The notes beneath the pieces were generated by a model. It had not been told where the DNA came from. It did not search any database and was given only the letters and a program-made list of their open reading frames with translations. This document shows positions 12,938 through 36,600 of a stretch of DNA of 46,318 bases, in pieces. The DNA lies in assembly GCA_023137275.1 (NCBI GenBank), contig JAGLPO010000040.1, positions 1 to 46,318 of the forward strand. Reading direction: 5' to 3'. The stretch's first letter is position 1. Every line of letters begins with the position of its first letter. Made by a program: the position numbers and the translations under genes. The stretch is from Candidatus Parcubacteria bacterium. GTDB lineage: Bacteria; Patescibacteriota; Patescibacteriia; Patescibacteriales; UBA12075.

Positions 12938-12953
12938 TTTTTAATTTTTTTAT

Positions 12954-14433: not shown

Positions 14434-14450
14434 AAGCGTATAAAAGAAAA

Positions 14451-16537: not shown

Positions 16538-16546
16538 TGTTATTTT

Positions 16547-17440
16547 ATGATTAGAATTTTACTGATATTTGCAATTTTAATTATATTGAGTGCATGCACT
16601 TTAAATATGGGCAAGCAAAATAAAGATGATAGTGCGGGTTTTGTAGATATAATTAAGTTGGCAAAAGAAAACCCGACTGTAGTTTTGACAGATTCAGATT
16701 TTAGTGACAGCTTTGATGCTGATTTAATCCTTGAAGAGACCAGGAAAATGAATGATAGTGAGGGTCTTTATTGGTGGGTAAATTCAGGAGCTTATTTTAT
16801 TCAAGAAAACGGCGTTGGCAAAACATTACAGGGAGAGCTAAGGCAGGATTCAGAATGGCAAATAAAGTATAAGGATCATAACGTGAATGAAACAGATGAT
16901 GGATTTCATCCGCAAAATATTTTTCGTCTCGTGACCAGAAGTAAGTGGCTTGATTACACGCAAGAAGTGGAATATAAAATAAATAAATATCACCTGAGTA
17001 AAGATGAGCACAGGAGCGCGTCAAACGGATTGCTTCTTTTTAATCGTTATCAGGATGGCGATAATTTATATTATACCGGCATAAGAGTTGACGGAGCAGC
17101 GGTTATAAAGAAAAAATATAAAGGCGAATATTATACCATGGATTATAAAACTATCATTGTGGATAGCAAATACGACAGAGAAACAAATCCGAATTTACTT
17201 CCGATAGAGGAATGGGTAAGTGTTAGGTCTGAGGTAAAAAATATTAATGATAAGCGAGTTGAAATAAAATTATATGTTAAATTACCAAATGATGTTGATT
17301 GGAATTTAGTGCTTGAGGCTATAGATGACGGCCAAGCTTTTGGCGGTGCTGCGATCACCAGTGAAGGTTTTGCCGGCGTTAGAACGGATTTTATGGATGT
17401 AGAATTTGATAATTTTAAAATTATCAAATTAGAAGAATAA
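16547..17440 (+). CDS. Lipoprotein with a lectin/glucanase-like domain
   Basis: Lipobox LSAC at residues 14-17. C-terminal GFAGVRTDFMDVEFDNFKII resembles the terminal strand of DUF1080-type domains. Confidence 0.55.
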   Translation: MIRILLIFAILIILSACTLNMGKQNKDDSAGFVDIIKLAKENPTVVLTDSDFSDSFDADLILEETRKMNDSEGLYWWVNSGAYFIQENGVGKTLQGELRQDSEWQIKYKDHNVNETDDGFHPQNIFRLVTRSKWLDYTQEVEYKINKYHLSKDEHRSASNGLLLFNRYQDGDNLYYTGIRVDGAAVIKKKYKGEYYTMDYKTIIVDSKYDRETNPNLLPIEEWVSVRSEVKNINDKRVEIKLYVKLPNDVDWNLVLEAIDDGQAFGGAAITSEGFAGVRTDFMDVEFDNFKIIKLEE

Positions 17441-17444
17441 AAAT

Positions 17445-18809
17445 ATGACAAAATTTATCAAAGAAAATTTATTTAATTTTATTTTAATTATTTGTGTGAC
17501 AACAATAACGGTCGGCTGGTTTTATTTTCCCGAAACCGCGGAAGCTCGCAGTGGCTGTTGTTCTTGGCATGGCGGAGTTTGCGGATGTTCTTGCTGTGAT
17601 GGTACTCCATTATCAGCAAAATGCGCTCCTTATTATCCGTGGTGTTCCAGAAGTTATACCCCATCTTACCCTGCATATACTGCTCCGTCTATTCCATCTT
17701 GTCCGTCCAATTCTTATTATGATTCTATTTCCAAAAGCTGTAAATGCAATTACGGCTATGTTGTTGAAAAAGATTTTTTGGGAAAAGAATCCTGCATATC
17801 AGGCAACAGTTATTGCAGTGATAAATACGGATACAATTCAAACTACAATAGCTTAAATAAAACTTGCCAATGCAATTATGGATATATAATGAACGGTGGA
17901 AAGTGCATCTCAGAAAATGAATATTGCAAAAATCTTTATGGCTATAATGCAAAATATAATATCTTAACTGATTCGTGCGAGTGTGTAAGCGGCTATGTTT
18001 TAGATAAAGATTTATTTAATGATGTTAAGTGCATTGATGGAGATGTCTATTGTCGGGATAAATATGGGTATTACTCAAGCTACAAATCATTTTCAAAAAA
18101 ATGTGAATGCGATTATGGCTATGAATTAGTTAATGGCAAGTGTAAGAAAAAGCAGGAAATAAGTTATACAAACAACATTTATACGCCTGACCTTTTAAAT
18201 TTATCAGACAATAATAAAATTTGTGGTAATAACTCTTATTTAACAAGTGATGATAAATGCACTTGTAAATTAGGATATATCTGGGTTGATGTAAATGACT
18301 CTAAAAATTTAGATTGCGAAAAGAAAATTATTTTGCCCTCAATTACATCCATTCAAAATAATGCGCCTCATGTCCAGAACAGCGTAATTGATACTGTCGT
18401 TGAAAGAGAAAAAAAGTTATTTAGCAAAAGTGATAATAATTTGATAAAAAGATTAGAAGGTAAAATATTATTACAAGTTGAAGAGAATGGAGAGGGGTGG
18501 TATATTTATCCAAATGACAAAAAGAAATATTATCTTGGTCAGCCCGCAGACGCGTTTAGTGTAATGCGAAAATTGGGTTTAGGCGCAACGCACGAATTTA
18601 TAACTAGCCATACAATATTTCCTGACCATGTTTTAGGAAAAATATTATTAGATGTAGAGCAAAATGGTGAAGCGTATTATATCTATCCAAAAGATAAAAA
18701 AGCGTATTATTTAGGCAGACCCGCAGACGCGTTTAGTGTAATGCGGAAATTAGGTTTAGGTATTACTAATAATGATGTCAGGAAGATAGATGTAGGGGAA
18801 ATTAAATAA
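17445..18809 (+). CDS. Secreted Cys-rich repeat protein with two C-terminal ~60-aa repeats
   Basis: N-terminal anchor. GCCSWHGGVCGC motif. Six C.C.YGY...GKC EGF-like repeats. Duplicated LLQVEENGE.WYIYP.DKK.YYLG.PADAFSVMRKLGLG units. Confidence 0.6.
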   Translation: MTKFIKENLFNFILIICVTTITVGWFYFPETAEARSGCCSWHGGVCGCSCCDGTPLSAKCAPYYPWCSRSYTPSYPAYTAPSIPSCPSNSYYDSISKSCKCNYGYVVEKDFLGKESCISGNSYCSDKYGYNSNYNSLNKTCQCNYGYIMNGGKCISENEYCKNLYGYNAKYNILTDSCECVSGYVLDKDLFNDVKCIDGDVYCRDKYGYYSSYKSFSKKCECDYGYELVNGKCKKKQEISYTNNIYTPDLLNLSDNNKICGNNSYLTSDDKCTCKLGYIWVDVNDSKNLDCEKKIILPSITSIQNNAPHVQNSVIDTVVEREKKLFSKSDNNLIKRLEGKILLQVEENGEGWYIYPNDKKKYYLGQPADAFSVMRKLGLGATHEFITSHTIFPDHVLGKILLDVEQNGEAYYIYPKDKKAYYLGRPADAFSVMRKLGLGITNNDVRKIDVGEIK

Positions 18810-21727: not shown

Positions 21728-21764
21728 AAAACCCCGCTTAGGCCAAGGCGGGGTTTGTTTATTT
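21728..21764 (+). terminator. Intrinsic terminator
   Basis: AACCCCGC...GCGGGGTTTGTTTATTT. Confidence 0.7.
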
Positions 21765-21848: not shown

Positions 21849-22091
21849 ATGTCGGAGATCGCTTACAAATATATCTGGCGGTGCGTCAAATGTGGCAGTC
21901 ATTTCGTTAATATTCACAAGGCGGACGGGGTGCTTAAACAGGAGAAAAAATGCTCTAAATGCAAGTCAGTCAACACGATCACGCTCACGGATAAAGAAAT
22001 TTATATACACTGCCGATTTTATGACCCGCAAAACAGCGGGTACCAGGAGGAATCCAGCGAAACTTATTCGTATCCTGTTATTGGCAGTTAA
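21849..22091 (+). CDS. Small zinc-ribbon protein (80 aa)
   Basis: CVKCG ... CSKCKS CxxC pairs. Preferred over the overlapping 21787..22128 frame, which is low-complexity and Arg/Ser-rich. No clear RBS. Confidence 0.4.
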   Translation: MSEIAYKYIWRCVKCGSHFVNIHKADGVLKQEKKCSKCKSVNTITLTDKEIYIHCRFYDPQNSGYQEESSETYSYPVIGS

Positions 22092-22118: not shown

Positions 22119-22322
22119 GTCATTCTGAGCCGCCCGTCTGACCGCGTTAGTCAGGCAGGTAGATGAAGAATCCCGTTGTGCCCCGTGTAAACGTAGTTTC
22201 TACCGGGGTGGATATAAAGACGAGATTCTTCACACGGCCTGATCATTCGCGGCCTCGCAGTGGCCCGCCTGCTTTCGCAGGCGAAGGGTGGTGGGTAGGG
22301 CCAGGCGGGCGCCCAGGATGAC
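22119..22322. other. GC-rich, multiply stem-looped non-coding element closed by a 12-bp stem
   Basis: GTCATTCTGAGC (22119-22130) pairs with GCCCAGGATGAC (22311-22322). Internal 9-bp stem 22164-22172 / 22224-22232. Hairpin CGCCTGC-TTTC-GCAGGCG competes with 22263-22271 / 22302-22310. GC content is far above its surroundings. Confidence 0.6.
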
Positions 22323-22334
22323 ACAAAAGATTTT

Positions 22335-22496
22335 AGAGGCTGTTTGAAAACCCCATTTTTACTGCAAATTCCAAATTTCGGCATAATTTTTTCTAAATTT
22401 TCTCGCCTATGCTTAGGCATAAGCTCAAAAATTTATAAAAAATTCTGCTCAAAATTTGAAATTTTCGTTACAAAAGCGGGTTTTCAAACAGCCTCT
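22335..22496. repeat. Long hairpin element E1 (19-bp perfect closing stem, 124-nt imperfectly palindromic interior)
   Basis: AGAGGCTGTTTGAAAACCC (22335-22353) is the exact reverse complement of 22478-22496. Apical hairpin TATGC-TTAG-GCATA at 22408-22421. Confidence 0.9.
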
Positions 22497-22561
22497 CAGA
22501 ACATCCAATATGTAAGCTATTTATTAACAATCTAAACACATTCGGGCATAAACGTATTTAG

Positions 22562-22687
22562 TATAATACATCAACGCCTCTTCGGAACAAGCTACTTCTT
22601 TTTGCGCGTTTTTAATTGATAATATTGCATTACGATTAAAATACACGCGCTTAAGGAGCGGCTGGTTCCGGGGAGGCGTATTTTTTT
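22562..22687 (+). ncRNA. Candidate small RNA or stand-alone terminator: TATAAT, ~105-nt rod-like hairpin, U7
   Basis: TATAAT at 22562-22567. ACGCCTCTTCGGAAC (22574-22588) pairs with GTTCCGGGGAGGCGT (22665-22679) using two G-U pairs. Inner GCGCGTTTTTAAT / ATTAAAA..ACGCGC helix. T7 at 22681-22687. Confidence 0.35.
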
Positions 22688-22725
22688 CCTTAGTTGTTAA
22701 CTAATTAATATATCCCGATAAGCAA

Positions 22726-22886
22726 TAGACTCACTGCACAATAAGTTTTGTAACGAAATTTTCAGATTTTGAGGCAAATTTTTTAAATAATTTTTGAGGT
22801 TTAGCCTAAGCTAAGCTGAAAAAATTTTTAGAAAATTTGACCAAAATATGGAAATTGCAGTAAAAAATTATTGTGCAGTGAGTCTA
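22726..22886. repeat. Long hairpin element E2 (19-bp perfect closing stem, interior homologous to E1 in the opposite orientation)
   Basis: TAGACTCACTGCACAATAA (22726-22744) is the exact reverse complement of 22868-22886. Extra outer 9-bp stem 22715-22723 / 22903-22911. Apical hairpin TTAGC-CTAA-GCTAA at 22801-22814. Confidence 0.9.
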
Positions 22887-23089: not shown

Positions 23090-23821
23090 ATGTTTAAGAA
23101 GCTTACAATGGTAGTGGCAATCGTATTTATGTTTGCCTTTACCCTAACTCCGGCTTTGGCTGGCGACATGACCATGGTAATGAACGACAATGAAGGCGCG
23201 GCCGCTAATCTTGTCGGCGCCGAGGCCAATACCGGCGGTAATTACGCGGGCGGCAGCTATGCCGGCGACGGCGGCGACGGCGGTGATATGAAGAACAGCG
23301 GTACTGACATTGAAGACAGCTCTACCGGGGCAGGCGGCAATGGCGGCAGTTCCGGGGAAGGCGGGGCCGTAATTACCGGCGACGCTGACGCAAAGGCGGC
23401 CGGTGTAAATTTGGTTAATACCAACTACACGGAAGTTGACGATTGCGCCTGTGAAGATGAAGAGGAAGAGAACGGCGCAGTTGACAGTCAGCTGGATGGA
23501 CCGGGACCGGGACCGGGACCGGGAATGTGCTGCGGCGATAAAGTTATTGTGCGCAACCACAATCGCCATCTGGGCGAGAACATGGTCGGCGCTCGCGCCA
23601 ACACCGGTGAAAACATGGCTGATGGCAGTGAAGCCGGTTACGGCGGTGAAGGCGGTGAGATGAAGAATAAGGATGGAGAAGATATTGAAAGAAGCCACAC
23701 TGGCGCCGGTGGAACCGGCGGCAACAGCGGCGTGGGCGGTTATGTTGAAACCGGCCGGTCTGACTCGCGGGCTCTTGGCGTAAATATTCTGGGCACCAAT
23801 ATTACCCGGATCAGAAGGTAG
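23090..23821 (+). CDS. Secreted Gly/Asp-rich protein with two ANTGxN...TGD modules joined by a Cys-rich acidic linker
   Basis: Signal peptide. Repeated N.NEGAA.NLV.AEANTGGNYAGGSYAGDGGDGGDMKN...IEDSSTGAGGNGGSSGEGGAVITGDA...NLVNTNYT. Linker DDCACEDEEEE...PGPGPGPGMCCGD. Ends NITRIRR. Confidence 0.7.
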   Translation: MFKKLTMVVAIVFMFAFTLTPALAGDMTMVMNDNEGAAANLVGAEANTGGNYAGGSYAGDGGDGGDMKNSGTDIEDSSTGAGGNGGSSGEGGAVITGDADAKAAGVNLVNTNYTEVDDCACEDEEEENGAVDSQLDGPGPGPGPGMCCGDKVIVRNHNRHLGENMVGARANTGENMADGSEAGYGGEGGEMKNKDGEDIERSHTGAGGTGGNSGVGGYVETGRSDSRALGVNILGTNITRIRR

Positions 23822-23832
23822 GAGTTATTTTT

Positions 23833-23859
23833 GGGAAAGGGAGTTTTTCTCCCTTTCCC
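23833..23859 (+). terminator. Perfect 11-bp hairpin between the two paralogs (attenuating terminator or processing site)
   Basis: GGGAAAGGGAG-TTTTT-CTCCCTTTCCC. No downstream T-run. Confidence 0.35.
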
Positions 23860-23936
23860 GGGCAAAAAGAAAAATAAATAGTTATAAAACAAAACGTAAA
23901 GGTCAATAATTAATTAAAAAAGTAATAATAAAACGT

Positions 23937-25277
23937 ATGAAGAAAATAATAACTTTGTCAACAATTCTGGCGTTAACCGTGTTTTCTTCCCTGCTGGCTT
24001 TGCCGGTACAAGCCGATGTAACGCCCGCGCCCAACCCCACTTTGGAAGACGCTTGCGGTTTGGATATTGCCCTTGTTCTGGACGTTTCAGGAAGCATAGG
24101 CGGTGATTTGGGTACGCTGCAAACCGCGGCCAAAGGGTTTGTTGACGCGTTTCTGCCCAGTACGCCCACGCTTATGGGGCTGGTTTCTTTCAGCTCCAGC
24201 GCGACCATTGTTCGGGATCTGACCAGCGACGCGACAGATCTTAAAGGCGCCATTGACGCTCTAAGCTCCGGCGGTTCAACGAATTGGAAAGACGCGCTTA
24301 TAAAAGGGACTAGTCTCTTGGAAGGCGGACTTGACAGGGATGACACGGACCACCCGGACCTTTTGGTGATGTTCAGCGACGGCCTGCCGAACGTGAATCC
24401 TTTGGATGATTCAATCACAGCGGCTAACCAGGCAAAAATGTCAACTTCAAGCCTGCCTATCCGCATCGTAGCGGTAGGCGTAGGCAGCGCGAGCACTTCA
24501 ACCCTGGTCTCTATCTCCGGCCCGATAGTGTCGCCACCGGCGGCAGTAACGAAAGATACTGATGTTATAATGAGTAATTTTGACGATCTGGCGACCACGC
24601 TCGGCAATCTGGCAAACGCCCTTTGCGATGACGCGAACGGATGCGTTGATTGCGACCATGGCCCGGATATTGTCATCAATGACAATGAAGGCGCGGCAAT
24701 AAATCTGGTCAGCGCCGAGGCCAATACCGGCGGTAATTACGCGGGCGGCAGCTACGGAGGCGATGGCGGTGACGGCGGTGACATGAAAAACGGGAATGAA
24801 GAAGAAGGCGGTGATATTGAAGACAGCTCTACCGGGGCAGGCGGCAATGGCGGCAGTTCCGGAGAAGGCGGGGCCGTAATTACCGGCGACGCTTCTTCTA
24901 CAGCCGGCGCTCTTAATGTCGTTAATACTAATTATACCGACATTGATCGCTGCGCTTGTCAAGAGGAGAATTGCTGCGAGGATGAATGCTGCTGTGATCT
25001 TGACCTGGTGCGTAACCGCAACCGGGCGATTGCCTTTAACGGCGTAAGAGCGCGGGCCAACACCGGTGAAAACATGGCTGATGGCAGTTATGCCGGTTAC
25101 GGCGGTGAAGGCGGCAAGATGAAAAATGAAGGCAACGATATAGAAGGCAGCCACACAGGTACCGGCGGTACAGGCGGTAATAGCGGCCCTGGCGGCTACG
25201 TCGAAACCGGACGGTCAGATGCCAGAGCTTTTGGTGTAAACATAGTCAACACCAATATTACCCGCATAAGACGCTAG
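23937..25277 (+). CDS. Secreted von Willebrand factor A (vWA) domain protein fused to two ANTGxN...TGD modules
   Basis: Signal peptide. MIDAS LDVSGS ... GGSTNW ... MFSDG. C-terminal half is paralogous to 23090..23821, with long near-identical DNA stretches. Same NITRIRR end. Confidence 0.8.
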   Translation: MKKIITLSTILALTVFSSLLALPVQADVTPAPNPTLEDACGLDIALVLDVSGSIGGDLGTLQTAAKGFVDAFLPSTPTLMGLVSFSSSATIVRDLTSDATDLKGAIDALSSGGSTNWKDALIKGTSLLEGGLDRDDTDHPDLLVMFSDGLPNVNPLDDSITAANQAKMSTSSLPIRIVAVGVGSASTSTLVSISGPIVSPPAAVTKDTDVIMSNFDDLATTLGNLANALCDDANGCVDCDHGPDIVINDNEGAAINLVSAEANTGGNYAGGSYGGDGGDGGDMKNGNEEEGGDIEDSSTGAGGNGGSSGEGGAVITGDASSTAGALNVVNTNYTDIDRCACQEENCCEDECCCDLDLVRNRNRAIAFNGVRARANTGENMADGSYAGYGGEGGKMKNEGNDIEGSHTGTGGTGGNSGPGGYVETGRSDARAFGVNIVNTNITRIRR

Positions 25278-25282
25278 CGGCA

Positions 25283-25334
25283 TGAAGGCGGATTTTAATC
25301 CATTCCGCCCCGACACAGTCGGGGCGGACCTTCA
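25283..25334 (+). terminator. GC-rich nested hairpin downstream of the vWA gene
   Basis: CCGCCCCGAC-ACA-GTCGGGGCGG inside TGAAGG...CCTTCA. No T-run. Confidence 0.35.
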
Positions 25335-25380
25335 CACAAGTTTATATCAAAAAATGTAAATTTATGAGAAGGAAAAAATA

Positions 25381-26031
25381 ATGTATATAATAAAATGTCA
25401 AATTAAATATGTATTAATTATCGCGGCAGCCATATTGTTGCTTATGATCCCGTTTATTGTTAAAGCCGAACATCTGGACATGGATGAGTTTTTTAATGAT
25501 CTGGATGAATTTATCCAGACGCAAAGCGTGAATAGTTCTGAAACACAGGCCATAAACCAGGTGACTGCCAGCGCCAACACCGGGGGCAACATTGCTGAAT
25601 CCGGTGAAATAATTCAGGGCGAAGCTGAATCAAGCGCAAGCATAAAGACTATTATTAACGGAGAGACAGTAGTTGATGAAGAATACAGCAAAAAAGGCGA
25701 AGAAGAAGCGAATATAAAAATAGAGAATAAAGTTGAAGTTAATACTGATGAGGCTGTGGTAGAAACTAATATCAATATAAACGGTGAAGAAAGCCACGTA
25801 GAATATACAGTGCCGATCAATAATTCAAGTGAAACATCAGATAACCCGGAGCAAAACAAAGAGATAGATACAGCGGATATTAAAGATAATGATGTTGAAG
25901 AGAATAATTTTGAGGATATTCAAAATAATAATAACAAAGATGACAGTGAAGCCGTAATAATAAGCCTTTGGCAACGCATTTTGGAAAGCTTTAGGAATCA
26001 AATAATAAAGCTATTAAATATATTCGCTTAA
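25381..26031 (+). CDS. Small secreted or anchored protein with a single ANTGxN module and an acidic Asn/Glu-rich tail
   Basis: N-terminal anchor. NQVTASANTGGNIAESGEIIQGEAESSASIKTIING. C-terminal amphipathic helix. Confidence 0.55.
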   Translation: MYIIKCQIKYVLIIAAAILLLMIPFIVKAEHLDMDEFFNDLDEFIQTQSVNSSETQAINQVTASANTGGNIAESGEIIQGEAESSASIKTIINGETVVDEEYSKKGEEEANIKIENKVEVNTDEAVVETNININGEESHVEYTVPINNSSETSDNPEQNKEIDTADIKDNDVEENNFEDIQNNNNKDDSEAVIISLWQRILESFRNQIIKLLNIFA

Positions 26032-26055
26032 TTAATTAATAATAATTACAAAAAT

Positions 26056-29000
26056 ATGACAATTTCAACCCCTGTAAATCAAAAACCAAAGCGTAAAATA
26101 TTAGTTTATGCCGTGGCTTTTGTGTTTATCTGCCAAACTTTATTCGCAATACCGATCTTAGCCGCTGATGAGGCTGGCGACGCTGTCATAGATACCGGCG
26201 ACGCAACCGCTACAATTGACGTGGATAATCAGGTAAATCAAAATGAATTTACCAATGATCCGCCGCCGATAGATGAGCCAGCACCAGGGGACGATCCGCC
26301 AGGTGATGACAGTGAAACATTGCCCGGCGAAGCATTGGCAGATGGCAATACCACCGAACTTGCCAATAACAATGAAGCTGAAGTGGATAACACGCTCGCT
26401 GGCGATGGCAATACCGGCGCAAACGAGATTCCGGGCGGCGAGGGAAACTCAATAATTATTACCGGCGACGCTGATATTGATTCCACGCTTACCAATGACG
26501 TGAACGGTAATACAGCAGTGGTTGAATGCGATCCTTGTGATAATGGCGATGATGCCAGCAGCACCATTATGGTTAAAAATACAAATAATGCCAGCACTAC
26601 TAATGATGTTGACTTATCCGGCAACACCGGCGATAACGAGATCAGTTCTACCAGTGGTACGGCTATTATCAGCACCGGTGATATCGGCATAATCAACGTG
26701 ATCATAAATTTCATCAACCATAATATTTTCGGCCAGGGTTCGCAGTTTTTTATAAACGTCTGGAATTCTGTTACGGAAACGATCGATCTGTCCGGTTTTG
26801 GCAAAGAGTCGGAAGAGCTGGCAAGCGAACTGGGCGTTTGCGAAGTGAATAACTGCCAGATCTCAATTAATAACACTAATACCGGCGAGATCGCCAATGA
26901 CGTTATCATTAACGCCAATACCGGCGCTAATCTGATCACCAATACCGGCGCGGAAAGCATTATTGAGACCGGCGACATAAATATCGCCAGCGATGTTTTA
27001 AATATCGCTAATCTGAACATTACCGGCAATGACTGGTTTTTTGCTGTTGTTAATATATTCGGCGAGCTTGAGGGCGATGTTATTCTGCCGCCGCCGGATA
27101 TGGCCGGCGAAGCCGACTCGGAAGCAGCGGAGGATTTGAATCTGGCCGAAGCGATTGAAGAGATCGGGGAGCATACTGCCGAAGTTATTATTACCAATAC
27201 CAACAATGTTAATGTCATGAATAATTTGAGTATTGAGGCGAATTCCGGGGAGAACAGCATCAGCTCCGGCACCAGCGCCCTGATAGATACCGGCAATGTC
27301 AATGCCAGGGCAATGGCCTTTAACCTGGTTAATTATAATATTTTCGGCGATTCCTGGAAGTTTGCCCGGGTCAATATATTTGGCAGCTGGCAGGGCTTTA
27401 TCAACGGTCTGCCGGATGATTATAGCTACTTTGAGGATGAATTCGGAATAACCGTGTATAGCGATATCCTGGATGACCCGGAGCTGAATGAACAGTTTGC
27501 TTTGCTTATGGTGGATAATAATAATTACGCTTCCAGCACCAATAACGTGGCGATTATTGCCAACACCGGCCAAAATACTATTCTCCACGGCGGCGATGCC
27601 GGCATCAGCACCGGAAATATTAATATTTATAATAGTTTGCTTAATTTTATCAATTCCAATTTTATTGGTAATAATTGGGAATTCTCAATGATCAACGTGT
27701 TTGGCGATTGGCAGGGCAACCTGGCTTTTGGCCAGCCCGAGCTGTGGATCACGGAAACTATGAAGCCGAAAAAAGAAGTTATGTATGGGGACAGAGTTAC
27801 CTATACTTTTCTTTTTGGCAATAATGGCGACGCTGTCGCGACCGACGTGGTGATAGTTGATGATTTTGACGAGGATATGATCCGGATCAAAAATAACGGC
27901 GGCGGGCAGAGGAACCAAGGCCATATTGAGTGGTATCTGGGGGACATCCCGCCGAATACTACCGGCAGCATCAGCTATACCGTGCAAGTTGACGGCGCGG
28001 TAGAGCGCGGCTATAGCACTTTGGTAAATGAGGTTGCGATCTTTAGCGCGGAAAATGATCGCGATACAAGCAATAATACATCCGGGGGCAGCGTATCCGT
28101 GTATTTACCGCCGCGAAAGACCTTTGATTTTCAAGCAGCCGCCGGCGGACAAGCCACGGTTAATTTGTCGGTTATCAAAACCAATGACGCTGTTGACGTG
28201 CTTTCACCCGGCGATATAGTCAATTTTGACATTATTATAAAAAATAACGGAGAAGGCGTTTCCCAAAAAGTATATGTCATGGATACAATGAGCAGCATTG
28301 CCACCGGACAGGTGATAAATGAAGCTTTTTGGGATCTGGAAACCGTTTATGACCAGGAAGAAATAATTATTGAGTACGCTTTGGAGATCACGCCGGATAT
28401 CAGGAGCGGCGAATATATTAATGAAGTAATGGTTGAAGGCTGGGATCCGGAACTGGGCGATTATATTGTCGCGGTTGCTTCTTCCAAAATTAAGGTGGAG
28501 AATAATTTACTGGGTCCGCAAAAGCAGGATGGCCCTAATCTGGTGGTTTCCAAAGTCAGGAAAAGCAGCTGGGCCAATCCTGGTAACACTATTGAATACG
28601 AGATCATTATCGCCAATGACGGCCTGGTAAAAGCTGACGATGTGGTGGTAACAGAAAGACTGCCCGAGGGTTTGGTATTTGGAAAAGAAAACGGTTTAAC
28701 GCTAAAGCGATGGGATCTGGAACATATGAATCCGGGCAAAATTGAGCGCTTAAGCTATACAATAATAGTTGGTAATAACACAGAACCGGGATTTTATTTA
28801 AGCGAGGCCGAAATTATAGCCGAGAACCATGATACCTTGTATATTAAAACCGAACTGGAGGTCAGAGCGGTGGTGGCTTTAGCGCTTGAATATACTGAGC
28901 CGGTGCAAACACCAACTATAATTTTAGCCGGCCCGGACAAGAGCGCTGATCCAATTATTTTGGCAGTTAATGATGATAATAGCATAAACGAAGATGACAA

Positions 29001-29211
29001 AACCGCGATAATAGAAATAGAGGAAACAAAGCTTAATTTATCAGCCAAAGAGGCATCGGCCGCGAGCCTGAGCGCGGTTAGCCCCGAAGTTAGCGTAAGC
29101 AGTGAAAATACGTTTCGCCTTATTGCCAAATTTTTGTTAGGGCTTACCATGCTTATATTTTTTATTGTTTTGTTTAATTTTATTAAAAACAAGCGAGAAC
29201 AAGTGTTTTAG
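26056..29211 (+). CDS. 1051-aa surface protein: five ANTGxN...TGD + N..N.NIFG..W.F..VNIFG modules, three DUF11-like repeats and a C-terminal TM anchor
   Basis: Signal anchor. Modules such as INANTGANLITNTGAESIIETGDINIASDVLNIANLNITGNDWFFAVVNIFG. DUF11-like GDRVTYTFLFGNNGD, GDIVNFDIIIKNNGE and GNTIEYEIIIANDGL. C-terminal hydrophobic helix + KNKREQVF. Confidence 0.75.
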   Translation: MTISTPVNQKPKRKILVYAVAFVFICQTLFAIPILAADEAGDAVIDTGDATATIDVDNQVNQNEFTNDPPPIDEPAPGDDPPGDDSETLPGEALADGNTTELANNNEAEVDNTLAGDGNTGANEIPGGEGNSIIITGDADIDSTLTNDVNGNTAVVECDPCDNGDDASSTIMVKNTNNASTTNDVDLSGNTGDNEISSTSGTAIISTGDIGIINVIINFINHNIFGQGSQFFINVWNSVTETIDLSGFGKESEELASELGVCEVNNCQISINNTNTGEIANDVIINANTGANLITNTGAESIIETGDINIASDVLNIANLNITGNDWFFAVVNIFGELEGDVILPPPDMAGEADSEAAEDLNLAEAIEEIGEHTAEVIITNTNNVNVMNNLSIEANSGENSISSGTSALIDTGNVNARAMAFNLVNYNIFGDSWKFARVNIFGSWQGFINGLPDDYSYFEDEFGITVYSDILDDPELNEQFALLMVDNNNYASSTNNVAIIANTGQNTILHGGDAGISTGNINIYNSLLNFINSNFIGNNWEFSMINVFGDWQGNLAFGQPELWITETMKPKKEVMYGDRVTYTFLFGNNGDAVATDVVIVDDFDEDMIRIKNNGGGQRNQGHIEWYLGDIPPNTTGSISYTVQVDGAVERGYSTLVNEVAIFSAENDRDTSNNTSGGSVSVYLPPRKTFDFQAAAGGQATVNLSVIKTNDAVDVLSPGDIVNFDIIIKNNGEGVSQKVYVMDTMSSIATGQVINEAFWDLETVYDQEEIIIEYALEITPDIRSGEYINEVMVEGWDPELGDYIVAVASSKIKVENNLLGPQKQDGPNLVVSKVRKSSWANPGNTIEYEIIIANDGLVKADDVVVTERLPEGLVFGKENGLTLKRWDLEHMNPGKIERLSYTIIVGNNTEPGFYLSEAEIIAENHDTLYIKTELEVRAVVALALEYTEPVQTPTIILAGPDKSADPIILAVNDDNSINEDDKTAIIEIEETKLNLSAKEASAASLSAVSPEVSVSSENTFRLIAKFLLGLTMLIFFIVLFNFIKNKREQVF

Positions 29212-29298
29212 CGGAGGTTTATTTATATTAACAAAATGTAATTATTAATAAATGGTATTGAATTAATAAAAATTAATTCAATCATCGTTTAAAAATCT

Positions 29299-32200
29299 AT
29301 GAAAAAAATCATTATGAAAAATTTTTGGCTTGCTTTAGGTTTAGCTGTTTTGCTTGTCAGCTTTACTTTAATCCAGACAAGCAGAGTGATTCTCGCTACT
29401 CACGTGGAACCCGTTTTTATTGAAGGTAATCCCAGTTGCGAAGACCTGGGATATCCGCTTGAGTACAAAATTGAATCACAGCCATACGAGGGAACATATG
29501 TTATTGATGATATTGGCAACACTATATCCGTATTTAATGAAGATCGTACAGGAGGTGAATCTTACGTTTTTGACTGGTCATCAACCCTGGGGATGGACGT
29601 GGTTTTTGTAAAAGCCGGAAACGGAGGCAATTTATACGCGTATGATCCTGAATCATTCGACGATTCAGGCCTTGAATCACCGAACCAACAGAATGGCATT
29701 AGCCATATTTCTTTCTGCTATGATTATGAATTGGATATTAGCAAAGACGCTGTCACTTCTTTTACCCGTACCCATGAGTGGGAGATAACCAAGTCAGTTG
29801 ACCAGGATACCCATTATTTGCCGATTGATGGCAGTGGAGACTCCGCTTATACGGTTGAAGTGGCTAAAACCGGATATACGGACAGCGAATGGGCAGTAGA
29901 AGGAACTATTACGATCCATAATCCGGCGCCGTTCACGGCCACAATAGAATCAGTCAACGATTCAATAAACGGAATTGAGCCAACAATAAATTGCGGCGTA
30001 AGTTTTCCGCATGAGTTGTTGTCCGGCCAGACTCTTGAATGCGATTACAGCGCGGATCTGCCGGATGGCGATCCCCGCCTTAATACGGCCACGGTTGAAT
30101 CCAGCGGACCTGTTGCCGGAGGATCAGCAGAAGCGGACGTTGACTTTTCATCCGCTGCAATAACCGAAGTTAACGCGGAAATCAATGTTACGGACACTAA
30201 TGGTGAGGCCTGGGGGCCGGTGTCTGGAGGAAATTTCTGGAGCTATGATATTGGATTTGATTGTTCTGATCCGGATCTAATATGGGAAGACAATCATGCC
30301 ATGTATGAGTTTCCAAATACCGCTGCTATTACTGAAACCGGACAATCAGACAGTGCTTCCGTAACTGTTCATTGCTATGACTGGGAGCTGGAAATCAGCA
30401 AAACAGCGAGTACTTCTTTGGTCAAAACCTATGAATGGGATATTGATAAAGATGTTTCTCCTTCCGTCTGGGATCTGCTTGATGGCAATAGCGGCCAGTC
30501 CCAATACGCGGTTACAGCCGCTAAAACAGGTTTTACGGAAAGCGGCTGGGCGGTATCCGGCATTATTACCATTCATAATCCGGCGCCGTTCACGGCCACA
30601 ATAGAATCAGTCAACGATTCAATGGACGGAATTGAGCCAACAATAGATTGCGGCGTAGATTTTCCGCATGAGTTGTTGTCCGGCCAGACTCTTGAATGCG
30701 ATTACAGCGCGGATCTGCCGGATAACTCAGCCTGCCTTAATACGGCCACGGTTGAATCCAGCGGACTTGTTGCCGGAGGATCAGCAGAAGCGGACGTTGA
30801 CTTTTCATCCGCTGCAATAACCGAAGTTAACGCGGAAATCAATGTTACGGACACTAATGGTGAGGCCTGGGGGCCGGTATCTGATACCGCTACCTGGTAT
30901 TACTATAGGACTTTTTACTGCGGCGATGATAGCGGCACGCATGATAATACCGCCACTATTACTGAAACCGGACAATCAGATGATGCTTCCGTAATTGTTA
31001 ATTGTTATCAGCTTGATGTTTCCAAGACAGCTGAAACTTCATTAACCCGTACCTGGGACTGGACAATTAATAAAACCGGCGATCAAACCGATATAACATT
31101 ATCTCCGGGCCAGCAATTTTCAGTAAACTACGCGGTTGATGTCAACGCAACCGGCATTGACAGCGATTGGTCGGCAGCGGGTAATATTGATATTCATAAC
31201 CCGGCTCCTTTTTCCGTCAAAATTAATAGCGTTGAAGATCTTGTAAATGGCGCAACAGCCGATGTTAACTGCGGTGTTACCTTTCCACACACTCTGCCAT
31301 CCGGCAATACTTTGGCTTGCTCATATAGCGCTAGCTTGAGCGACGATTCTAATCGTACTAATACGGCCACGGTTGAACTGCAGAATTATAACATTGATTA
31401 CGAGGGTTGTATAACCGAAGCCGGCACCACGGATTTTTCCGGTTCCGCGGCTGTTGATTTTAGCGCCGCTTCTGTCAGCGAAATAGATGAATGCGTTGAT
31501 GTAAATGACGATCAATATGGTGGCCTTTTAGGCGCGATTTGCGCTAACCAGGCGCCTTATACGTTCAACTACAGCATGTTCGTAGGTCCTTATAGCGATT
31601 GCGGCCAGTATCAATTTGTTAATACTTCCTCTTTTTTAACAAACGATACCGGAGTTGTCGGATCTTATTATTGGACAATTAATATTGATGTGCCGTGTGA
31701 AGGCTGTTCTTTGACTCCGGGCTATTGGAAGACTCATTCCGACTACGGCCCGGCTTCTTATGATGATACCTGGGGCTTGTTGCCAAACGACGCTGATACT
31801 GTTTTTTTCCTGTCCGGTAAGAGTTATTATGAGGTTCTTTGGACCGCCTCATCAAAAGGCAATGCCTATTATATCCTGGCTCATGCTTATATCGCGGCTG
31901 AGTTAAATGGTTTAAACGGCGCTGATCTTTCTGTTATCGGCAGTGAAATGGGCGAAGCTGAAGAATTATTTAATACATACACCCCTGAATATGTGCTTGA
32001 TAAAAAAGGCAAGAACGGTAAAGAGTTAAGGGATGATTTTATCAGTTTAGCCGGTATAATTGACGATTACAACAACGGTTATATCGGTCCGGGCCACTGC
32101 AGTGAAGAAGATGAAGTTGTCTATTCCACGGATGTTTATTCCATTTCGCAGTCAGCGAATGGGGATAGCGACGGTGACGGATTGTCTGATGATGACGAGA

Positions 32201-32448
32201 GTATTTACGGCACGGATCCCGGCAATCCCGATACTGACGGCGACGGCTATCTTGACGGCGTGGAAGTGGCCAACGGTTATGATCCCTTAGGTGAAGGGAG
32301 ATTAATTAGCGATTTGGACAGGGACAGCGACGGATTATCCGATAATGACGAGAGTATTTACGGCACGGATCCCAGCAATCCCGATACTGACGGCGACGGC
32401 TATCTTGACGGCGTGGAAGTGGCCAACGGTTATGATCCCTTAAGCTAA
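29299..32448 (+). CDS. 1049-aa secreted protein with three ~215-aa repeat domains and C-terminal thrombospondin-type-3-like Ca-binding repeats
   Basis: Signal peptide. Repeats contain W.I.K...IHNPAPF...NTATVES. The first two are ~96% identical at DNA level over 306 bp. Duplicated DESIYGTDP.NPDTDGDGYLDGVEVANGYDPL. Confidence 0.75.
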   Translation: MKKIIMKNFWLALGLAVLLVSFTLIQTSRVILATHVEPVFIEGNPSCEDLGYPLEYKIESQPYEGTYVIDDIGNTISVFNEDRTGGESYVFDWSSTLGMDVVFVKAGNGGNLYAYDPESFDDSGLESPNQQNGISHISFCYDYELDISKDAVTSFTRTHEWEITKSVDQDTHYLPIDGSGDSAYTVEVAKTGYTDSEWAVEGTITIHNPAPFTATIESVNDSINGIEPTINCGVSFPHELLSGQTLECDYSADLPDGDPRLNTATVESSGPVAGGSAEADVDFSSAAITEVNAEINVTDTNGEAWGPVSGGNFWSYDIGFDCSDPDLIWEDNHAMYEFPNTAAITETGQSDSASVTVHCYDWELEISKTASTSLVKTYEWDIDKDVSPSVWDLLDGNSGQSQYAVTAAKTGFTESGWAVSGIITIHNPAPFTATIESVNDSMDGIEPTIDCGVDFPHELLSGQTLECDYSADLPDNSACLNTATVESSGLVAGGSAEADVDFSSAAITEVNAEINVTDTNGEAWGPVSDTATWYYYRTFYCGDDSGTHDNTATITETGQSDDASVIVNCYQLDVSKTAETSLTRTWDWTINKTGDQTDITLSPGQQFSVNYAVDVNATGIDSDWSAAGNIDIHNPAPFSVKINSVEDLVNGATADVNCGVTFPHTLPSGNTLACSYSASLSDDSNRTNTATVELQNYNIDYEGCITEAGTTDFSGSAAVDFSAASVSEIDECVDVNDDQYGGLLGAICANQAPYTFNYSMFVGPYSDCGQYQFVNTSSFLTNDTGVVGSYYWTINIDVPCEGCSLTPGYWKTHSDYGPASYDDTWGLLPNDADTVFFLSGKSYYEVLWTASSKGNAYYILAHAYIAAELNGLNGADLSVIGSEMGEAEELFNTYTPEYVLDKKGKNGKELRDDFISLAGIIDDYNNGYIGPGHCSEEDEVVYSTDVYSISQSANGDSDGDGLSDDDESIYGTDPGNPDTDGDGYLDGVEVANGYDPLGEGRLISDLDRDSDGLSDNDESIYGTDPSNPDTDGDGYLDGVEVANGYDPLS

Positions 32449-32493
32449 GGAAAGCATGGCTGCTACTTTGGAAATAACGATAGTTGAGGCAAA

Positions 32494-32535
32494 CAAAAAA
32501 ACCTGCCATAAGCGCGGCTTGCGGCAGGTTTTTTC
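32494..32535 (+). terminator. Intrinsic terminator
   Basis: AAAAAAACCTGCC...GGCAGGTTTTTT. Confidence 0.8.
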
Positions 32536-32660
32536 TATTTCAAGCTACTTTTTTTATTGGACATTAGTGGCTTAAGTTTAACAAATTTGATAAAATAGAA
32601 TTAGTGTATTAAAATATTTACATAAATACGCAAATATATAATAAATAAAGTTTAAAATAA

Positions 32661-33293
32661 ATGTTTTTAAAAAAGAAAAAAAAGCCGGTTTTAAAAATTT
32701 TGGTTTTATTTTTGGAATTTTCAGCCATTGCCCTGGTTTTATATTTAATTGCTTTGCCTTTTTATCCTTCAGTTAAATATAAAACTACGATAAAAGAATA
32801 TAGCCAATTGCCGGAAGCTGAGGAAAGAGTGATCATTCAGGAGCAAGTGGCGGAATTTAAGAGCGGCTTGCCGACAAATGAATTTGATGTTTCGCCAAAC
32901 AGGGTAATAATCCCCAAAATCGGGGTTAACGCGCCTATTGTTGTTACTGAGAATTCCAAATACGGGCTTAGCCAGGGGGCCTGGCTGGTGCCAAATACCT
33001 CCACGCCTGATAAAGGCGGCAACACGGTAATAACGGGCCATCGTTTTAAATATTTGCCTCCTCATAATTTAACATTTTATTTGTTTCACAAACTGGAAAC
33101 AGGGGATTTGGTTTCAATCGTCTGGAAAGAGCGTGATTATTTATATAGAATTAAAGAAACGCGGATCGTTGAACCCACCGAAGTTTCAATCATGGATCCA
33201 ACCAAAGAACCAACCCTGACCATGTTTACCTGCCACCCGATCTATTCAACCGAGCAAAGATTAGTTGTAATAAGTGAACTGGTGGAAAGTTAA
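32661..33293 (+). CDS. Sortase-family transpeptidase
   Basis: N-terminal anchor. His in NTVITGHRF, Cys in TLTMFTCHP (TLxTC motif), Arg in EQRLVV. Confidence 0.8.
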   Translation: MFLKKKKKPVLKILVLFLEFSAIALVLYLIALPFYPSVKYKTTIKEYSQLPEAEERVIIQEQVAEFKSGLPTNEFDVSPNRVIIPKIGVNAPIVVTENSKYGLSQGAWLVPNTSTPDKGGNTVITGHRFKYLPPHNLTFYLFHKLETGDLVSIVWKERDYLYRIKETRIVEPTEVSIMDPTKEPTLTMFTCHPIYSTEQRLVVISELVES

Positions 33294-33527: not shown

Positions 33528-33694
33528 GAATACGCCGTAACGCGTTCTGGTGAATATTTTACAAAACATTAAAAATCGTTTATATTTAAGGTAAGGCAAA
33601 TATTAATTTGTGTATTAATGAATTTTAGATTTAATTTATTTATTATTAGATAAGCGCCAAAACATGTAGTTTTTGGTGTTTTTTTTGTTTTTAT

Positions 33695-36600
33695 ATGAAG
33701 TATTTATTTTCAAAAAAAGTTTTTTTAGGTTTGGTGGTTTTTGTTTTTATGCTTATAGCACAAAGCAGCACAATGGTTTCTTTGGCAGAAGATGGTGAAT
33801 TTATAGCGACAGGAAGCATGAATGTTCCTCGACTAGGACATACTGCCACGCTTCTGTCTAATGGGAAAGTGCTTATCACTGGCGGAGATAGCAGTAATAA
33901 TATCGCGAAATATCATAATTCCGCTGAACTCTATGATCCTGCATCTGGCACGTTCAGTTATACGGGCAGCATGTCAACGGGAAGGAGTGCGCACACGGCC
34001 ACATTATTAGCCAATGGCAAAGTCCTGATTACCGGGGGCATGGATCAATACTTAACTGATCATACTCTCGATTCAGCGGAGATTTATGATCCTGAAACAG
34101 GTACGTTTATCCCAACAGAAAAAATGACAACAAAACGCCAGTGGCATCAGGCTGTTTTATTGAATGATGGCCGTGTTCTGATAGCTGGCGGGTTTGACAG
34201 TCAAGCCCCTACTACATATTTAAATTCTTCCGAAATCTACGATCCTGCTACGGGCTTATTCACTCCCACGGGAAGTATGAACGTTCCAAGGATTTGGTTT
34301 GCGATGACGGCTTTAAGCGACGGCCGCGTGTTGGTTGCGGGCGGATCTGATCATTATGCGGGGTCGACTGAAACTAGCGAATTGTATGATATTTCTACTG
34401 GAATATTTTCTTATTCTGGAAATTTTGCTACTCCTAGGTGGATTCATGAAGGAGTGTTGCTTAATAATGGCGACGTGCTATTTGCCGGCGGCTCTAGTTA
34501 TGCCTCAGGCGAGACGCGTCTTAGATCGGTAGAAATTTTCAACATATCAAATAAAGAATTTTCTTCGGCAGCCGATATGAATAGTGCGAGACAGGGTCCT
34601 TCCGCGACACTTCTTGCGGATGGCAACGTCTTTGTTGCCGGAGGACACAATGGCGCTGTTATTGTAGATACAGCTGAGATTTATGATAAAGATTCCGGCG
34701 TATTTACTCTGACAAACAGTGCTATGACCACAGCTCGATACGGGCATAAGGCAACTAAGTTAAATGACAATACTGTATTATTGACTGGAGGACTAAATGA
34801 GAATAATGTCATATTGGCATCCTCGGAGAGATATGTTACCGTCCCAAAGTCGGCTGAAAATGTTTTATTCTATGATGATTTTAATGACAACGTTATTGAT
34901 TCAGCCAAATGGACCATATCGGGCAATAGTGTGTATGAACAAGATGGTGTAATGCAAGTAAAAACGGAGGTAACTGATTCCGGTGGCCATCTTTGGTCAA
35001 AATGGATGCCGATAAATGGCGTTGAACCAATTATAGTAAGCCGCAGAACATTTCAACATTTTCAAGGTAACTACATTGGACGCCATCAGTTATTATTTGA
35101 TTTAGATGGCGACAATGTAACAGATTTTGGTTTCGGCGTTGGATATGCAGATGACTCATATGTTAATTCGTCAACTGATAACTGCGCTCGGTTTGGTTTT
35201 TATTTATATGAAGGATTGAGTGGTTACGGAAGGTGCTCAACTATTCATAGCGGTCCAATTTCGCCTATATGGGATACATGGTTTGATGAAGAAATTACTT
35301 ATGATCCCGTCTCTGGAATTTTAAGTTATGCAATAAACGGCCAAGTACAAGATGCTTTGGCAGTCGGTATGTTGCCGACAACTCAGAATATCCGAATGCG
35401 ACTGCATTTTGTGGCATGGGGATGGTATACGGGGCATTACGATTATTTTGACGATATTTCGGTTGTTCAGTCAAGCCAAAATCAGCTGCAATGCTCCGAT
35501 TGGATTGATAATGACGGAGATGGTTTTGTGGATATGAATGATCCAGGGTGCCATACAGATTATGATGCGAATAATAGTGATTCGTATGATCCGTTAATTT
35601 CTAACGAACAAAGAGATGAAAATATCGGCTTGGTTGCGTATTATCCTTTTTCTGACGGCGCTAATGACGAAAGCGGCAATGAAAGACATGGCGTTGTTTA
35701 TGGCGCTTCGCCTTTCAGCAACAATATGATATCTTCTGCCTATTACTTTGATGGTGTTGATGACTATATTGATATTCCGGATCTTTATTTTAAGAATGTT
35801 ACTGTTTCCGCAATCGCGCGTTATGACCTTGAATCAGTTCCTCTAAATAGTAACGACAAGAAAGTCTCTAATATTATTAATGGGTGGAAGGATACAGAAA
35901 ATTTTTCGCTTCTAATAAGAGAATATCCTGAAGGTAAAAAATTTGTAGGCGCGTTTCATGAATATGTTGAAACAGGCGTTTGCTATAAAGAATTTAAGAC
36001 TTTATCCAATACAATTATCCAGGCCGGAGAATATTATCATGTAGCGCTTACTTATAATGGAGAGTATATTCGTATGTATATTAACGGTGAATTTGAAAGC
36101 GAAGCCATGCGATCTGATGTTGCTTATAGTTGTTCCGCAGACATTTCTATTCTGCCGGATATACGCATAGGCGTGGATAGGGTGGATTCAGGGCACTTCA
36201 AAGGATTGATTGATGAAGTTCGTTTATATGATATGGCTCTATCGGAAGCTGAAATTCAAAAACTTTATAATACTAAAGAGCCAATTCTTGAATATTCAAC
36301 TGAAGCTGGGTACAAAGACACAGAACTTGAGGAGCCGGAACCTTTCAATATAAACTTTGGGCTTCATCCCGACAAAGGTACGGCAAATAAAGACGAGTTG
36401 ACATTTAAAGTGGTGTGCAAAAACAAAGACAAGCCTGATGAAGTAAATGTTATTCTTGATCACATCGTTGGTATTGACGAGAAAAATGCTTTTTACGAAC
36501 AGTCTGTTGCGTTTATCAAACCTGATAATGGCACGATCCTATTTAGAGAGATAGACGATAACCCGCTTTATAGTTATGTTGGATATGACTCACCAGGTGC

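Follow-up and report, generated by a model that had tools for sequence, protein, structure and literature searches.

What does a bacterium build from a run of secreted, repeat-bearing proteins that carry no obvious means of being joined together, encoded a few kilobases upstream of a sortase? The question is raised by a contig of a Candidatus Parcubacteria bacterium (JAGLPO010000040.1, assembly GCA_023137275.1), of which we analyzed positions 1 to 46,318, a stretch of 46,318 nucleotides that we call the window. Four consecutive genes within it, A243, B446, C216 and D1051 (A to D below), share a module of about 56 amino acids, here called the ANTG module, and are followed by a gene for another repeat protein, E1049, and by the sortase gene. 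An earlier reading made from the letters and translations with no database searches (the sequence-only reading) had picked out these genes as a candidate pilus-like system, and all six open reading frames (ORFs) are found at the positions it gave, on the + strand. We favor a different arrangement, a surface assembly specific to Patescibacteria in which D is the scaffold and A and B are anchorless subunits docked on it, probably for attachment, and we put the probability of this proposal at about 0.48.

Patescibacteria account for much of the diversity of bacteria, their cultivated members live attached to host cells, and the molecules of that contact are, beyond type IV pili, almost unknown. 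A conserved gene set that combines an anchored scaffold with secreted partners bearing exchangeable heads would be a testable candidate for an attachment structure in these bacteria.

The ANTG module and its carriers

Translating the window in all six frames yields 10 copies of the module core, [AGS]N[TS]GxN: two each in A and B, one in C and five in D. With module coordinates taken from profile hidden Markov models (HMMs) built on relatives, the four proteins hold 10 full modules and, in D, one half-module that is kept in the consensus of the D family; elsewhere in the window the module HMMs pick up no significant ORF segment. Modules of the A/B type and modules 2-5 of the D type are homologous, aligning in hhalign with ~97% probability and E values of 1e-11 to 1e-12, and D module 1 aligns with the A/B type at a probability of 89-95%. 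These alignments span 54-56 columns, with the Gly-rich part standing out as an insertion of ~35 amino acids. The core consensus reads NxNxAxxxNxxxxxA(N/D)TGxNxA...GxxxIxTGDAxxxAxVxNxxNxN, and D-type modules 2-5 add a W/F-rich extension, NIxGxxWxxxxVNIFGxWxGxIxxP. The sequence-only reading was right, then, that a single module is common to the four genes.

It was also right that the module fits no named family. Sequence and profile searches of Pfam-A, NCBIfam and the PDB with A, with the N-terminus of D and with a 64-sequence module profile gave no match for the module, and no earlier description of ANTG proteins turned up among the full-text papers matched on Patescibacteria surface proteins, sortases, pili, cryo-ET, appendages or VWA adhesins. 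Judged by these comparisons, ANTG is a new domain family outside Pfam, NCBIfam and the PDB. The family is large: a single-module profile matched 3,685 of 1.84 billion cluster representatives (50% identity clusters) at E<=1e-3 and 1,340 at E<=1e-30, so that a family of 3,685 such clusters, missing from both Pfam and NCBIfam, awaits curation. Typical matches are 600-1,200 amino acids long with 4-9 modules, and among the matches listed every source name is either a generic repeat label or "hypothetical protein". Nearly all come from Patescibacteria (Parcubacteria/Paceibacterota, Kaiser-, Zambryski-, Ryan-, Woese-, Roizman- and Levybacteria, Saccharibacteria), with a few metagenome-assembled genomes labelled otherwise, as Gammaproteobacteria (L007, L017) or Clostridia (L016, P0309). 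Some of the proteins closest to A and D of the window, at 48-50% identity, are encoded in L007, which leads us to doubt its label; this is probably a binning or naming error on a Patescibacterial contig.

AlphaFold2 models, made with family alignments, predict an all-beta module in which one unusually long strand of ~21 residues precedes shorter ones, interrupted at the TGxN and TGD turns. In the model of A (mean pLDDT 76, pTM 0.49) the two modules reach a pLDDT of ~90 and are separated by a disordered linker, and residues 1-565 of D are modeled with confidence as a compact multi-module body (pLDDT 83.3, pTM 0.76). With Foldseek, both models were compared with the PDB and the D model also with BFVD; no match was significant (best E 0.09), and no TM score exceeded 0.13. 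The non-significant lists were mostly beta-helix and beta-solenoid proteins, among them the FapC amyloid, pectate-lyase-like enzymes, tailspikes and ice-binding proteins. As modeled, the module fold is without a solved relative.

The two-module proteins of the A/B type are remarkably uniform at one end and variable at the other. A has 68 homologues, all of them unannotated Patescibacteria proteins. Every one of the 59 aligned members has two modules behind a signal peptide ending in P-A-L-A or similar (signal peptides were judged by eye from translations throughout), no member has an anchor, and the great majority (~45 of 59) end at most 2 residues after an N-x-T-R-I-x-R motif, of which the NITRIRR ends that had been noticed in two of the window's proteins are examples. 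The Cys-rich linker described earlier is likewise a general feature, with CxC placed right after module 1 in at least 90% of A/B-type relatives, usually inside an acidic linker; some A-type members, P0004 for example, have no Cys at all. A Cys cross-link site common to the whole family was rejected, since only 11-20 of 61 D-type linkers hold Cys pairs, and was kept for the A/B type only.

An N-terminal head is present on about half of the A/B-type proteins. Among the 26 head-bearing members, 22 carry a domain of ~170 amino acids, two a VWA domain and one a DUF642-like domain; a second DUF642-like head occurs in locus L005. The ~170-amino-acid head gives only sub-threshold discoidin/CBM32 signals in profile searches and is possibly discoidin-like. 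The VWA head of B is firmer, passing the cut-offs of PF00092 (1.1e-14) and PF13519 (6.2e-11) with DVSGS, GGSTN and FSDG at the positions of the metal ion-dependent adhesion site (MIDAS); by sequence it qualifies as a VWA domain with MIDAS, as first read, and metal binding is predicted. The same fusion of VWA and two modules is found in L001, L009 and P0050. A constant C-terminal unit, exchangeable heads and a constrained free C-terminus together make the pattern expected of a docking or assembly unit.

What of the Gly/Asp insert, which had been likened to the beta-rolls that bind Ca? Here the earlier suggestion fails. The glycine autocorrelation of the insert peaks at lags 3 and 6, with 116 (GGx)3 sites in 38 of the 59 A/B-type proteins, and an RTX/beta-roll was rejected: the 59 proteins hold 2 isolated nonapeptides and none in tandem, and there is no HemolysinCabind match. 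The insert is read as something other than a beta-roll because of this period of 3 and the absence of tandem GGxGxDxUx nonapeptides. DSSP assigns the GGx runs to neither strand nor helix, yet they are modeled in A with a pLDDT of ~90. GGX triplets are the unit of polyglycine-II helices (PMC7830552), and runs that are well modeled but not beta would fit such helices without amounting to proof.

Gene order, hairpins and what they suggest about A

Are these genes a set, or do they merely happen to be adjacent in one genome? The sequence-only reading had asked whether they stay together in relatives, and they do, in L001 and in other loci. We recognized C-like genes by a signal peptide, a usually detectable module and an amphipathic or hydrophobic helix at the extreme C-terminus; at least 13 of 18 loci, three of the four from Microgenomates among them, have one beside the D-type gene. 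The same-strand order A-type, C-like, D-type is found in 10 of 14 Parcubacteria-type loci. Thirteen loci came from a search with a 12-sequence alignment on the C-terminal NxTRI pattern only, and those 13 under-sample the family. On the 1.27-Mb Parcubacteria contig of L001 the order is three CLIPPER/SpaA proteins, an 80-amino-acid Zn-ribbon ORF, A-like, VWA-B-like, C-like, D-like and sortase. Three of the four Microgenomates loci have, upstream of D, a four-module protein with a C-like C-terminal helix, and two (L020, L023) have a three-module paralogue with a transmembrane (TM) tail 3' of D. Read across these loci, the conserved core is C plus D, to which the two-module proteins of the A/B type have been added in Parcubacteria.

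E1049 had been taken as part of the set. Its domain content was described correctly (four TSP3 repeats, 8.7e-20), as was that of the sortase (3.5e-25), but E1049 is missing from syntenic L001, and for that reason we read it as a lineage-specific insert outside the conserved set. Ahead of the TSP3 repeats E1049 has three internal repeats of ~200 amino acids (YDWELEISK...IHNPAPFTATIESVNDS...CDYSADLPD), two copies of which are nearly identical; they have no family match. Some Microgenomates D-type genes stand beside TasA/camelysin-type proteins (Peptidase_M73, with AYF(T/S)DTE N-terminal motifs; L021 10322-12544, L022 10061-13882), and the same loci encode an SGSMSPT signal-peptidase-like N-terminus fused to an LTD domain, an ensemble that resembles the SipW/TasA fibre system.

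A hairpin between A and B had been described as weak and as a possible control of stoichiometry. It is present, and stronger than that description allowed, with a 14-bp stem and a folding energy of -22.5 kcal/mol. A stem-loop stands 3' of the last two-module gene in all 11 loci examined, at -18.5 to -33.7 kcal/mol, which makes separate control of A plausible. Against all 50-nt windows of their own locus these hairpins have z scores of -3.1 to -6.3, and equally stable sites number only 1-12 per 13-46 kb; the window has 8 sites at or below -22.5 kcal/mol, one of them directly after B, and a similar hairpin lies 3' of E. Hairpin sequences are unrelated between loci. The hairpin is a conserved positional feature that plausibly sets expression of A/B apart from that of C and D, whether by termination, attenuation or stabilization of transcripts. 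Terminator-like hairpins bracket the cluster as a whole.

Base composition had been noted as raised in these genes, and the excess extends to third codon positions (GC3): A 0.59, B 0.55 and D 0.49, compared with 0.20-0.43 for most genes of the window. We rejected the idea that raised GC3 marks the family or signals high expression, because in ten related loci the A-type gene has the same GC3 as its neighbors; the excess is limited to the cluster in the window. The L001 lineage has a GC3 of ~0.6, and an old lateral origin of the cluster is compatible with the data though not established. Composition varies along the window as in a mosaic: GC3 falls to a very low 0.20-0.30 across 8215-18809, a block of polysaccharide genes (UDP-glucose dehydrogenase, a GT2/chitin-synthase-like enzyme and a polysaccharide deacetylase), against 0.47-0.59 in rpsB, A and B.

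If A is made in excess, as the hairpin suggests, it might do more than decorate D. One possibility is an open-ended, self-polymerizing fibre, in which the D array nucleates filaments of A, possibly locked by disulfides or metal through CxC, with B as an adhesive subunit. Such a division of labor would follow the logic of long (anchored, two-domain) and short (secreted) chaplins (PMC3079736). As in beta structures of the ladder type, the module conserves little besides N, G, T and A; the non-significant fold-search hits are beta-solenoids that include FapC amyloid, and CxC is conserved in at least 90% of the A/B type. However, the model of A shows two folded modules and not an amyloid-prone peptide, no significant match to curli, Fap or chaplin families was obtained, and some A-type members, such as P0004, lack Cys; polymerization itself is a hypothesis only, and we consider this fibre rather unlikely. 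A second use for an abundant A would be an S-layer-like lattice or wall coat, tethered via D and structural or protective in role. High expression of A, as implied by the hairpin, would suit it, as would the PG_binding_1 domains of some D-type proteins and the envelope-biogenesis genes around the cluster, but adhesin- or lectin-type heads are fused to the two-module unit, and no S-layer family or SLH-type domain was matched in Pfam or NCBIfam. We regard the coat as improbable.

Anchors, the sortase and a candidate surface assembly

The only anchored protein of the four is D. It scores 86.9 bits against PF01345 (cut-off 24.6) in three stretches and 47.5 bits against TIGR01451, and is the only one of A, B, C and D to carry CLIPPER; the DUF11 repeats and C-terminal TM segment ascribed to it earlier are borne out (1.6e-24 for CLIPPER). 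CLIPPER is a CnaA-like stalk domain of fibrillar adhesins, and many of its members, though not all, have an intramolecular isopeptide bond (bioRxiv 10.1101/2025.04.25.650565). With tandem PF01345 between a signal peptide and an anchor, D has by sequence the layout of a CLIPPER (DUF11) fibrillar adhesin.

The anchor is not fixed across the family. A TM segment with a basic tail ends 141 of 231 D-type proteins; an LPxTG-like motif is found in only 2-4 of these 141 tails, true LPxTG in P0166 and P0116, some other D-type proteins carry PG_binding_1, and the tail of D is not conserved with that of its L001 orthologue. From this variety of tails we conclude that the anchoring mode of D is interchangeable.

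Since D already has a complete fibrillar-adhesin layout, the proteins might be independent adhesins that never touch, the ANTG module being a rigid, beta-rich spacer or stalk reused in each, with A and B soluble or matrix-bound and lectin-like and D separately anchored. Tandem paralogy alone would explain why the genes are adjacent, and the half-module of D may cap its array. Two observations sit poorly with this. A has neither head nor anchor and, as a stalk, would have nothing to display; and coordinated function is suggested by the strict gene order, the invariant free C-terminus of the A/B type and the conserved hairpin. We count independent adhesins as unlikely.

Could the sortase join the proteins instead? 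The sequence-only reading leaned toward a pilus-like, sortase-linked architecture while remarking that its ANTG proteins had no canonical sorting signal, and the second observation has outlived the first. A, B and C end without any hydrophobic stretch, and in D no motif accompanies the TM segment and basic tail, so that none of the four carries an LPxTG-like signal. The only sortase-type signal in the window belongs to U893, an adhesin with Cys-rich acidic repeats, SpaA-like prealbumin domains and a CLIPPER domain, encoded upstream of A and ending in LAESG, a TM segment and KRR; L001 has three U893 paralogues ending in LAETG (1177-8813). On the strength of this sole LAESG signal and of the LAETG paralogues, the sortase most probably serves U893. 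LAXTG is the signal of class E sortases (PMC5148588), and U893 with its L001 paralogues looks like a class-E-type (LAXTG) substrate set in Patescibacteria. The sortase itself, 66% identical to that of L001, scores 60-66 bits against class C, D and E models with cut-offs of 140-165 (66 against 160 for class C, 65 against 160 for class E).

For a sortase-assembled pilus with B as its VWA tip adhesin, one can point to the position of the sortase gene, 3.4 kb downstream of D in the window with E1049 between, and directly after the D-type gene in L001. In Microgenomates a sortase is near the D-type gene in three of four loci (L020, L021, L023), beside a LADTG protein or three-module proteins ending in VLGLS(D/A)TS plus TM, and one such three-module paralogue, in some cases with a basic tail, lies just before the sortase. 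VWA tip adhesins are typical of Gram-positive pili, and a few D-type proteins do have true LPxTG. Several points speak against it: A to D lack sorting signals, A, B and C have no CnaA/CnaB match in Pfam or NCBIfam and their folds are not those of CnaA/CnaB pilins, no sortase is found in the flanks of 12 other loci, and a better substrate, U893, is adjacent. We hold the pilus to be very improbable. Given the recurrence of sortase genes by D-type genes in Microgenomates, a looser link between sortase-anchored proteins and the ANTG system may exist. A CAP (cysteine-rich secretory protein) gene comes right after the sortase in two Microgenomates loci (L020 7362-8219, L023 12080-13063), and the window has one at 41369-42757, 8 kb downstream of the sortase.

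The docked assembly that we favor would work as follows. D would be held in the membrane by its C-terminal TM segment and raised on its CLIPPER stalk, so as to display five and a half modules at the distal end. A and B, Sec-exported and with no anchor of their own, would dock on D, and possibly on each other, through their two-module unit by module-to-module association of beta-sheets, each unit ending in a free N-x-T-R-I-x-R. A would be the abundant or major structural subunit, its expression set apart from that of C and D by the hairpin; B, and head-bearing paralogues elsewhere, would supply the ligand-binding domain, in B a VWA domain with MIDAS; and C, conserved and accessory, might act as an adaptor or cap. 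The whole would probably serve to attach the cell to a host or to a substrate, and the sortase next door would act on the separate LAESG adhesin U893.

Of this proposal, the sequences themselves show module homology, domain content, export and anchor signals, co-conservation and the hairpin. The earlier view of these products also stands: they are surface proteins, secreted or anchored, and one of them has a VWA head of the adhesin type. We infer the rest, namely that A, B and C associate with D, that A is abundant and that the assembly is adhesive. Several points weigh on the other side. The half-module of D is confidently modeled (pLDDT 85-91) and may dock on the body of the array, capping an end that would otherwise be an open edge. 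The paralogues can sit together by tandem duplication alone, the hairpins after A lack U-tracts, and an adhesive role rests on head identities that are firm only for VWA, the discoidin-like signal being sub-threshold.

Taken further, the proposal would describe a new class of appendage, specific to Patescibacteria and independent of sortase and type IV pili, in which D primes the polymerization of A through a new beta fold, the CxC/acidic linker and the basic C-terminus stabilize the product, and heads (VWA, lectin-like) are exchangeable tips for host recognition, making it a main host-attachment organelle of Parcubacteria. This is a speculative extension that we think unlikely. Mature A, at ~220 amino acids, offers a small soluble target for work on structure and assembly.

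The surroundings of the cluster and its likeness to known systems

Genes for the envelope and the surface make up an island that takes in the window; those of the cluster are listed in Table 1. Between U893 and A is an 80-amino-acid Zn-ribbon ORF (21849-22091, +) with two CxxC pairs and a weak Zn_ribbon_8 match; its counterpart in L001, placed alike, shares 70% identity with it, more than the 33-66% of the neighboring surface proteins and the sortase, and it may be a small regulator of the cluster. The ORF-poor spacer of ~1 kb upstream of A holds a GC-rich element of ~205 nt (22120-22325) with a folding energy of -102 kcal/mol (+ strand z -5.2, - strand z -5.9); it is followed by several long hairpins (22331-22886). 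This element is missing from the equivalent spacer of L001 and has no gathering-level Rfam match, only generic sub-threshold matches to hairpin families; it could be an insertion resembling a miniature inverted-repeat transposable element or an unknown RNA. Rfam and tRNA scans of the whole window gave nothing at gathering level.

Downstream, 33695-39583 (+) encodes a secreted protein of 1,962 amino acids with an N-terminal Kelch propeller, Laminin_G_3 and an LCAT-like alpha/beta-hydrolase (lipase) region. A giant LCAT-bearing protein (NosD/Beta_helix plus LCAT) flanks the cluster in L005 and L006, and weak matches resembling the 1,962-amino-acid protein occur in L009 and L013. At 39696-40981 lies an AbiEii-type nucleotidyltransferase toxin (4e-19), overlapped by 4 nt by the preceding ORF of 188 amino acids; the two are probably an AbiE-like toxin-antitoxin pair. 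A secreted S8 subtilisin is encoded 17 kb upstream of the ANTG cluster in the window (5266-6582) and within a few genes of it in L003 (13911-15623), L005 (8094-9320) and L020 (3-1346). It might process ANTG proteins, or the proximity might be coincidental.

Table 1. Coordinates in the window of the ANTG genes, their modules and associated features.
Feature	Position	Strand	Description and evidence
U893	18952-21633	+	Cys-rich/SpaA/CLIPPER adhesin upstream of A
U893 sorting signal	21529-21630	+	LAESG, hydrophobic segment, KRRLLV
Hairpin 3' of U893	21729-21756	+	Terminator-like; upstream cluster boundary
A243	23090-23821	+	PALA-ended signal peptide, 2 Gly-rich ANTG modules, acidic CxC...CC linker, C-terminal NITRIRR; no anchor
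A module 1	23171-23443	+	hmmsearch i-Evalue 5e-30
A module 2	23543-23818	+	hmmsearch 1e-32; ends in N-x-T-R-I-x-R C-terminus
Stem-loop 3' of A	23830-23862	+	14-bp stem, 5-nt loop, then an A-run, not a U-run
B446	23937-25277	+	VWA head and two-module unit as in A; C-terminal NITRIRR
VWA domain of B	24063-24521	+	Pfam PF00092 1.1e-14, amino acids 43-195; DxSxS...T...D MIDAS-type residues
B module 1	24666-24950	+	Profile HMM 8e-30
B module 2	25005-25274	+	Profile HMM 8e-34
Second stable hairpin site, directly 3' of B	25281-25330	+	Folding energy scan of the window
C216	25381-26031	+	Signal peptide, one degenerate module, acidic low-complexity region, C-terminal amphipathic helix
C module	25519-25668	+	hmmsearch E 3.8e-5 with a D-type profile not trained on C
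C-terminal amphipathic helix of C (VIISLWQRILESFRNQIIKLLNIFA)	25954-26028	+	Hydrophobic moment 1.47
D1051	26056-29211	+	Signal peptide, half-module, Pro-rich linker, five modules, CLIPPER/DUF11 stalk, TM, basic tail
N-terminal half-module of D (TGD half only)	26167-26250	+	Profile HMM 1.7e-4; AlphaFold2 pLDDT 85-91
Five-module array of D	26350-27729	+	Profile HMM 9e-9 to 1e-26
D modules singly	26350-26514, 26563-26769, 26857-27090, 27184-27396, 27508-27729	+	Profile HMMs
CLIPPER/DUF11 stalk region of D	27733-28845	+	Pfam PF01345 1.6e-24, 3 stretches; TIGR01451
C-terminal TM anchor of D	29131-29184	+	Followed by KNKREQVF; no sortase motif before TM
E1049	29299-32448	+	Secreted repeat protein, four bacterial TSP3 repeats; Pfam TSP3_bac 8.7e-20
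Sortase, 210 amino acids	32661-33293	+	Sortase domain 3.5e-25
Hairpin 3' of sortase	33652-33681	+	Terminator-like; downstream cluster boundary

How does the ANTG system compare with surface structures that are already understood? The closest in design are the chaplins of Streptomyces (long ChpA-C, short ChpD-H), in which, as here, one small beta-rich domain appears both in anchored multi-domain proteins and in small secreted paralogues. Chaplins co-assemble on the surface, and their conserved Cys matter for fibril morphology (PMC3079736); Streptomyces also encodes a LAXTG-recognizing sortase (PMC5148588). The likeness does not extend to sequence or family: the chaplin domain is ~40 hydrophobic residues, whereas ANTG is polar and rich in N, G and T. 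The anchored ANTG member uses a TM segment where chaplins use a sortase, the small ANTG members have two modules and often a binding head, and assembly of the ANTG proteins is putative.

Functional amyloids offer a second comparison. In curli (CsgA/CsgB) and Fap (FapC), imperfect repeats with much Asn/Gln and Gly form stacked beta structure, and a surface-bound nucleator paralogue is paired with a secreted major subunit. FapC structures head the non-significant Foldseek lists, but at E 0.5-1.6 and TM ~0.1 they are no real fold match; there is no Curlin or Fap Pfam hit, and Pfam and NCBIfam scans show no membership of the Curlin_rpt, Fap or chaplin families. Unlike curli and Fap, which have outer-membrane secretion machinery, the ANTG system has none, and its modeled strands of ~21 residues are not short solenoid rungs. 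In the polyglycine-II sandwich of PE_PGRS proteins, phage S16 gp38 and the snow-flea antifreeze protein (sfAFP), the shared element is the GGx triplet with its period of 3; the A/B inserts have only two short (GGx)3-4 runs each, and no fold-search hit to sfAFP or gp38 was obtained.

Gram-positive pili with VWA tip adhesins, such as RrgA, SpaC and GBS104, resemble the cluster in having a VWA/MIDAS protein, a nearby sortase and stalk domains of the isopeptide type, which in D are CLIPPER; they differ from the ANTG proteins, which lack sorting signals and the CnaA/CnaB fold and whose A-C-D genes are, in most loci, not co-conserved with a sortase. CLIPPER fibrillar adhesins match D from the signal peptide and distal functional region to the tandem CLIPPER stalk and the anchor (bioRxiv 10.1101/2025.04.25.650565). 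In D, however, an array of unannotated repeats takes the distal place, and separate anchorless proteins encoded upstream have it too, a trait not described for CLIPPER adhesins. In its logic, then, this surface system resembles those that pair an anchored protein with secreted paralogues; the domain from which it is built is new.

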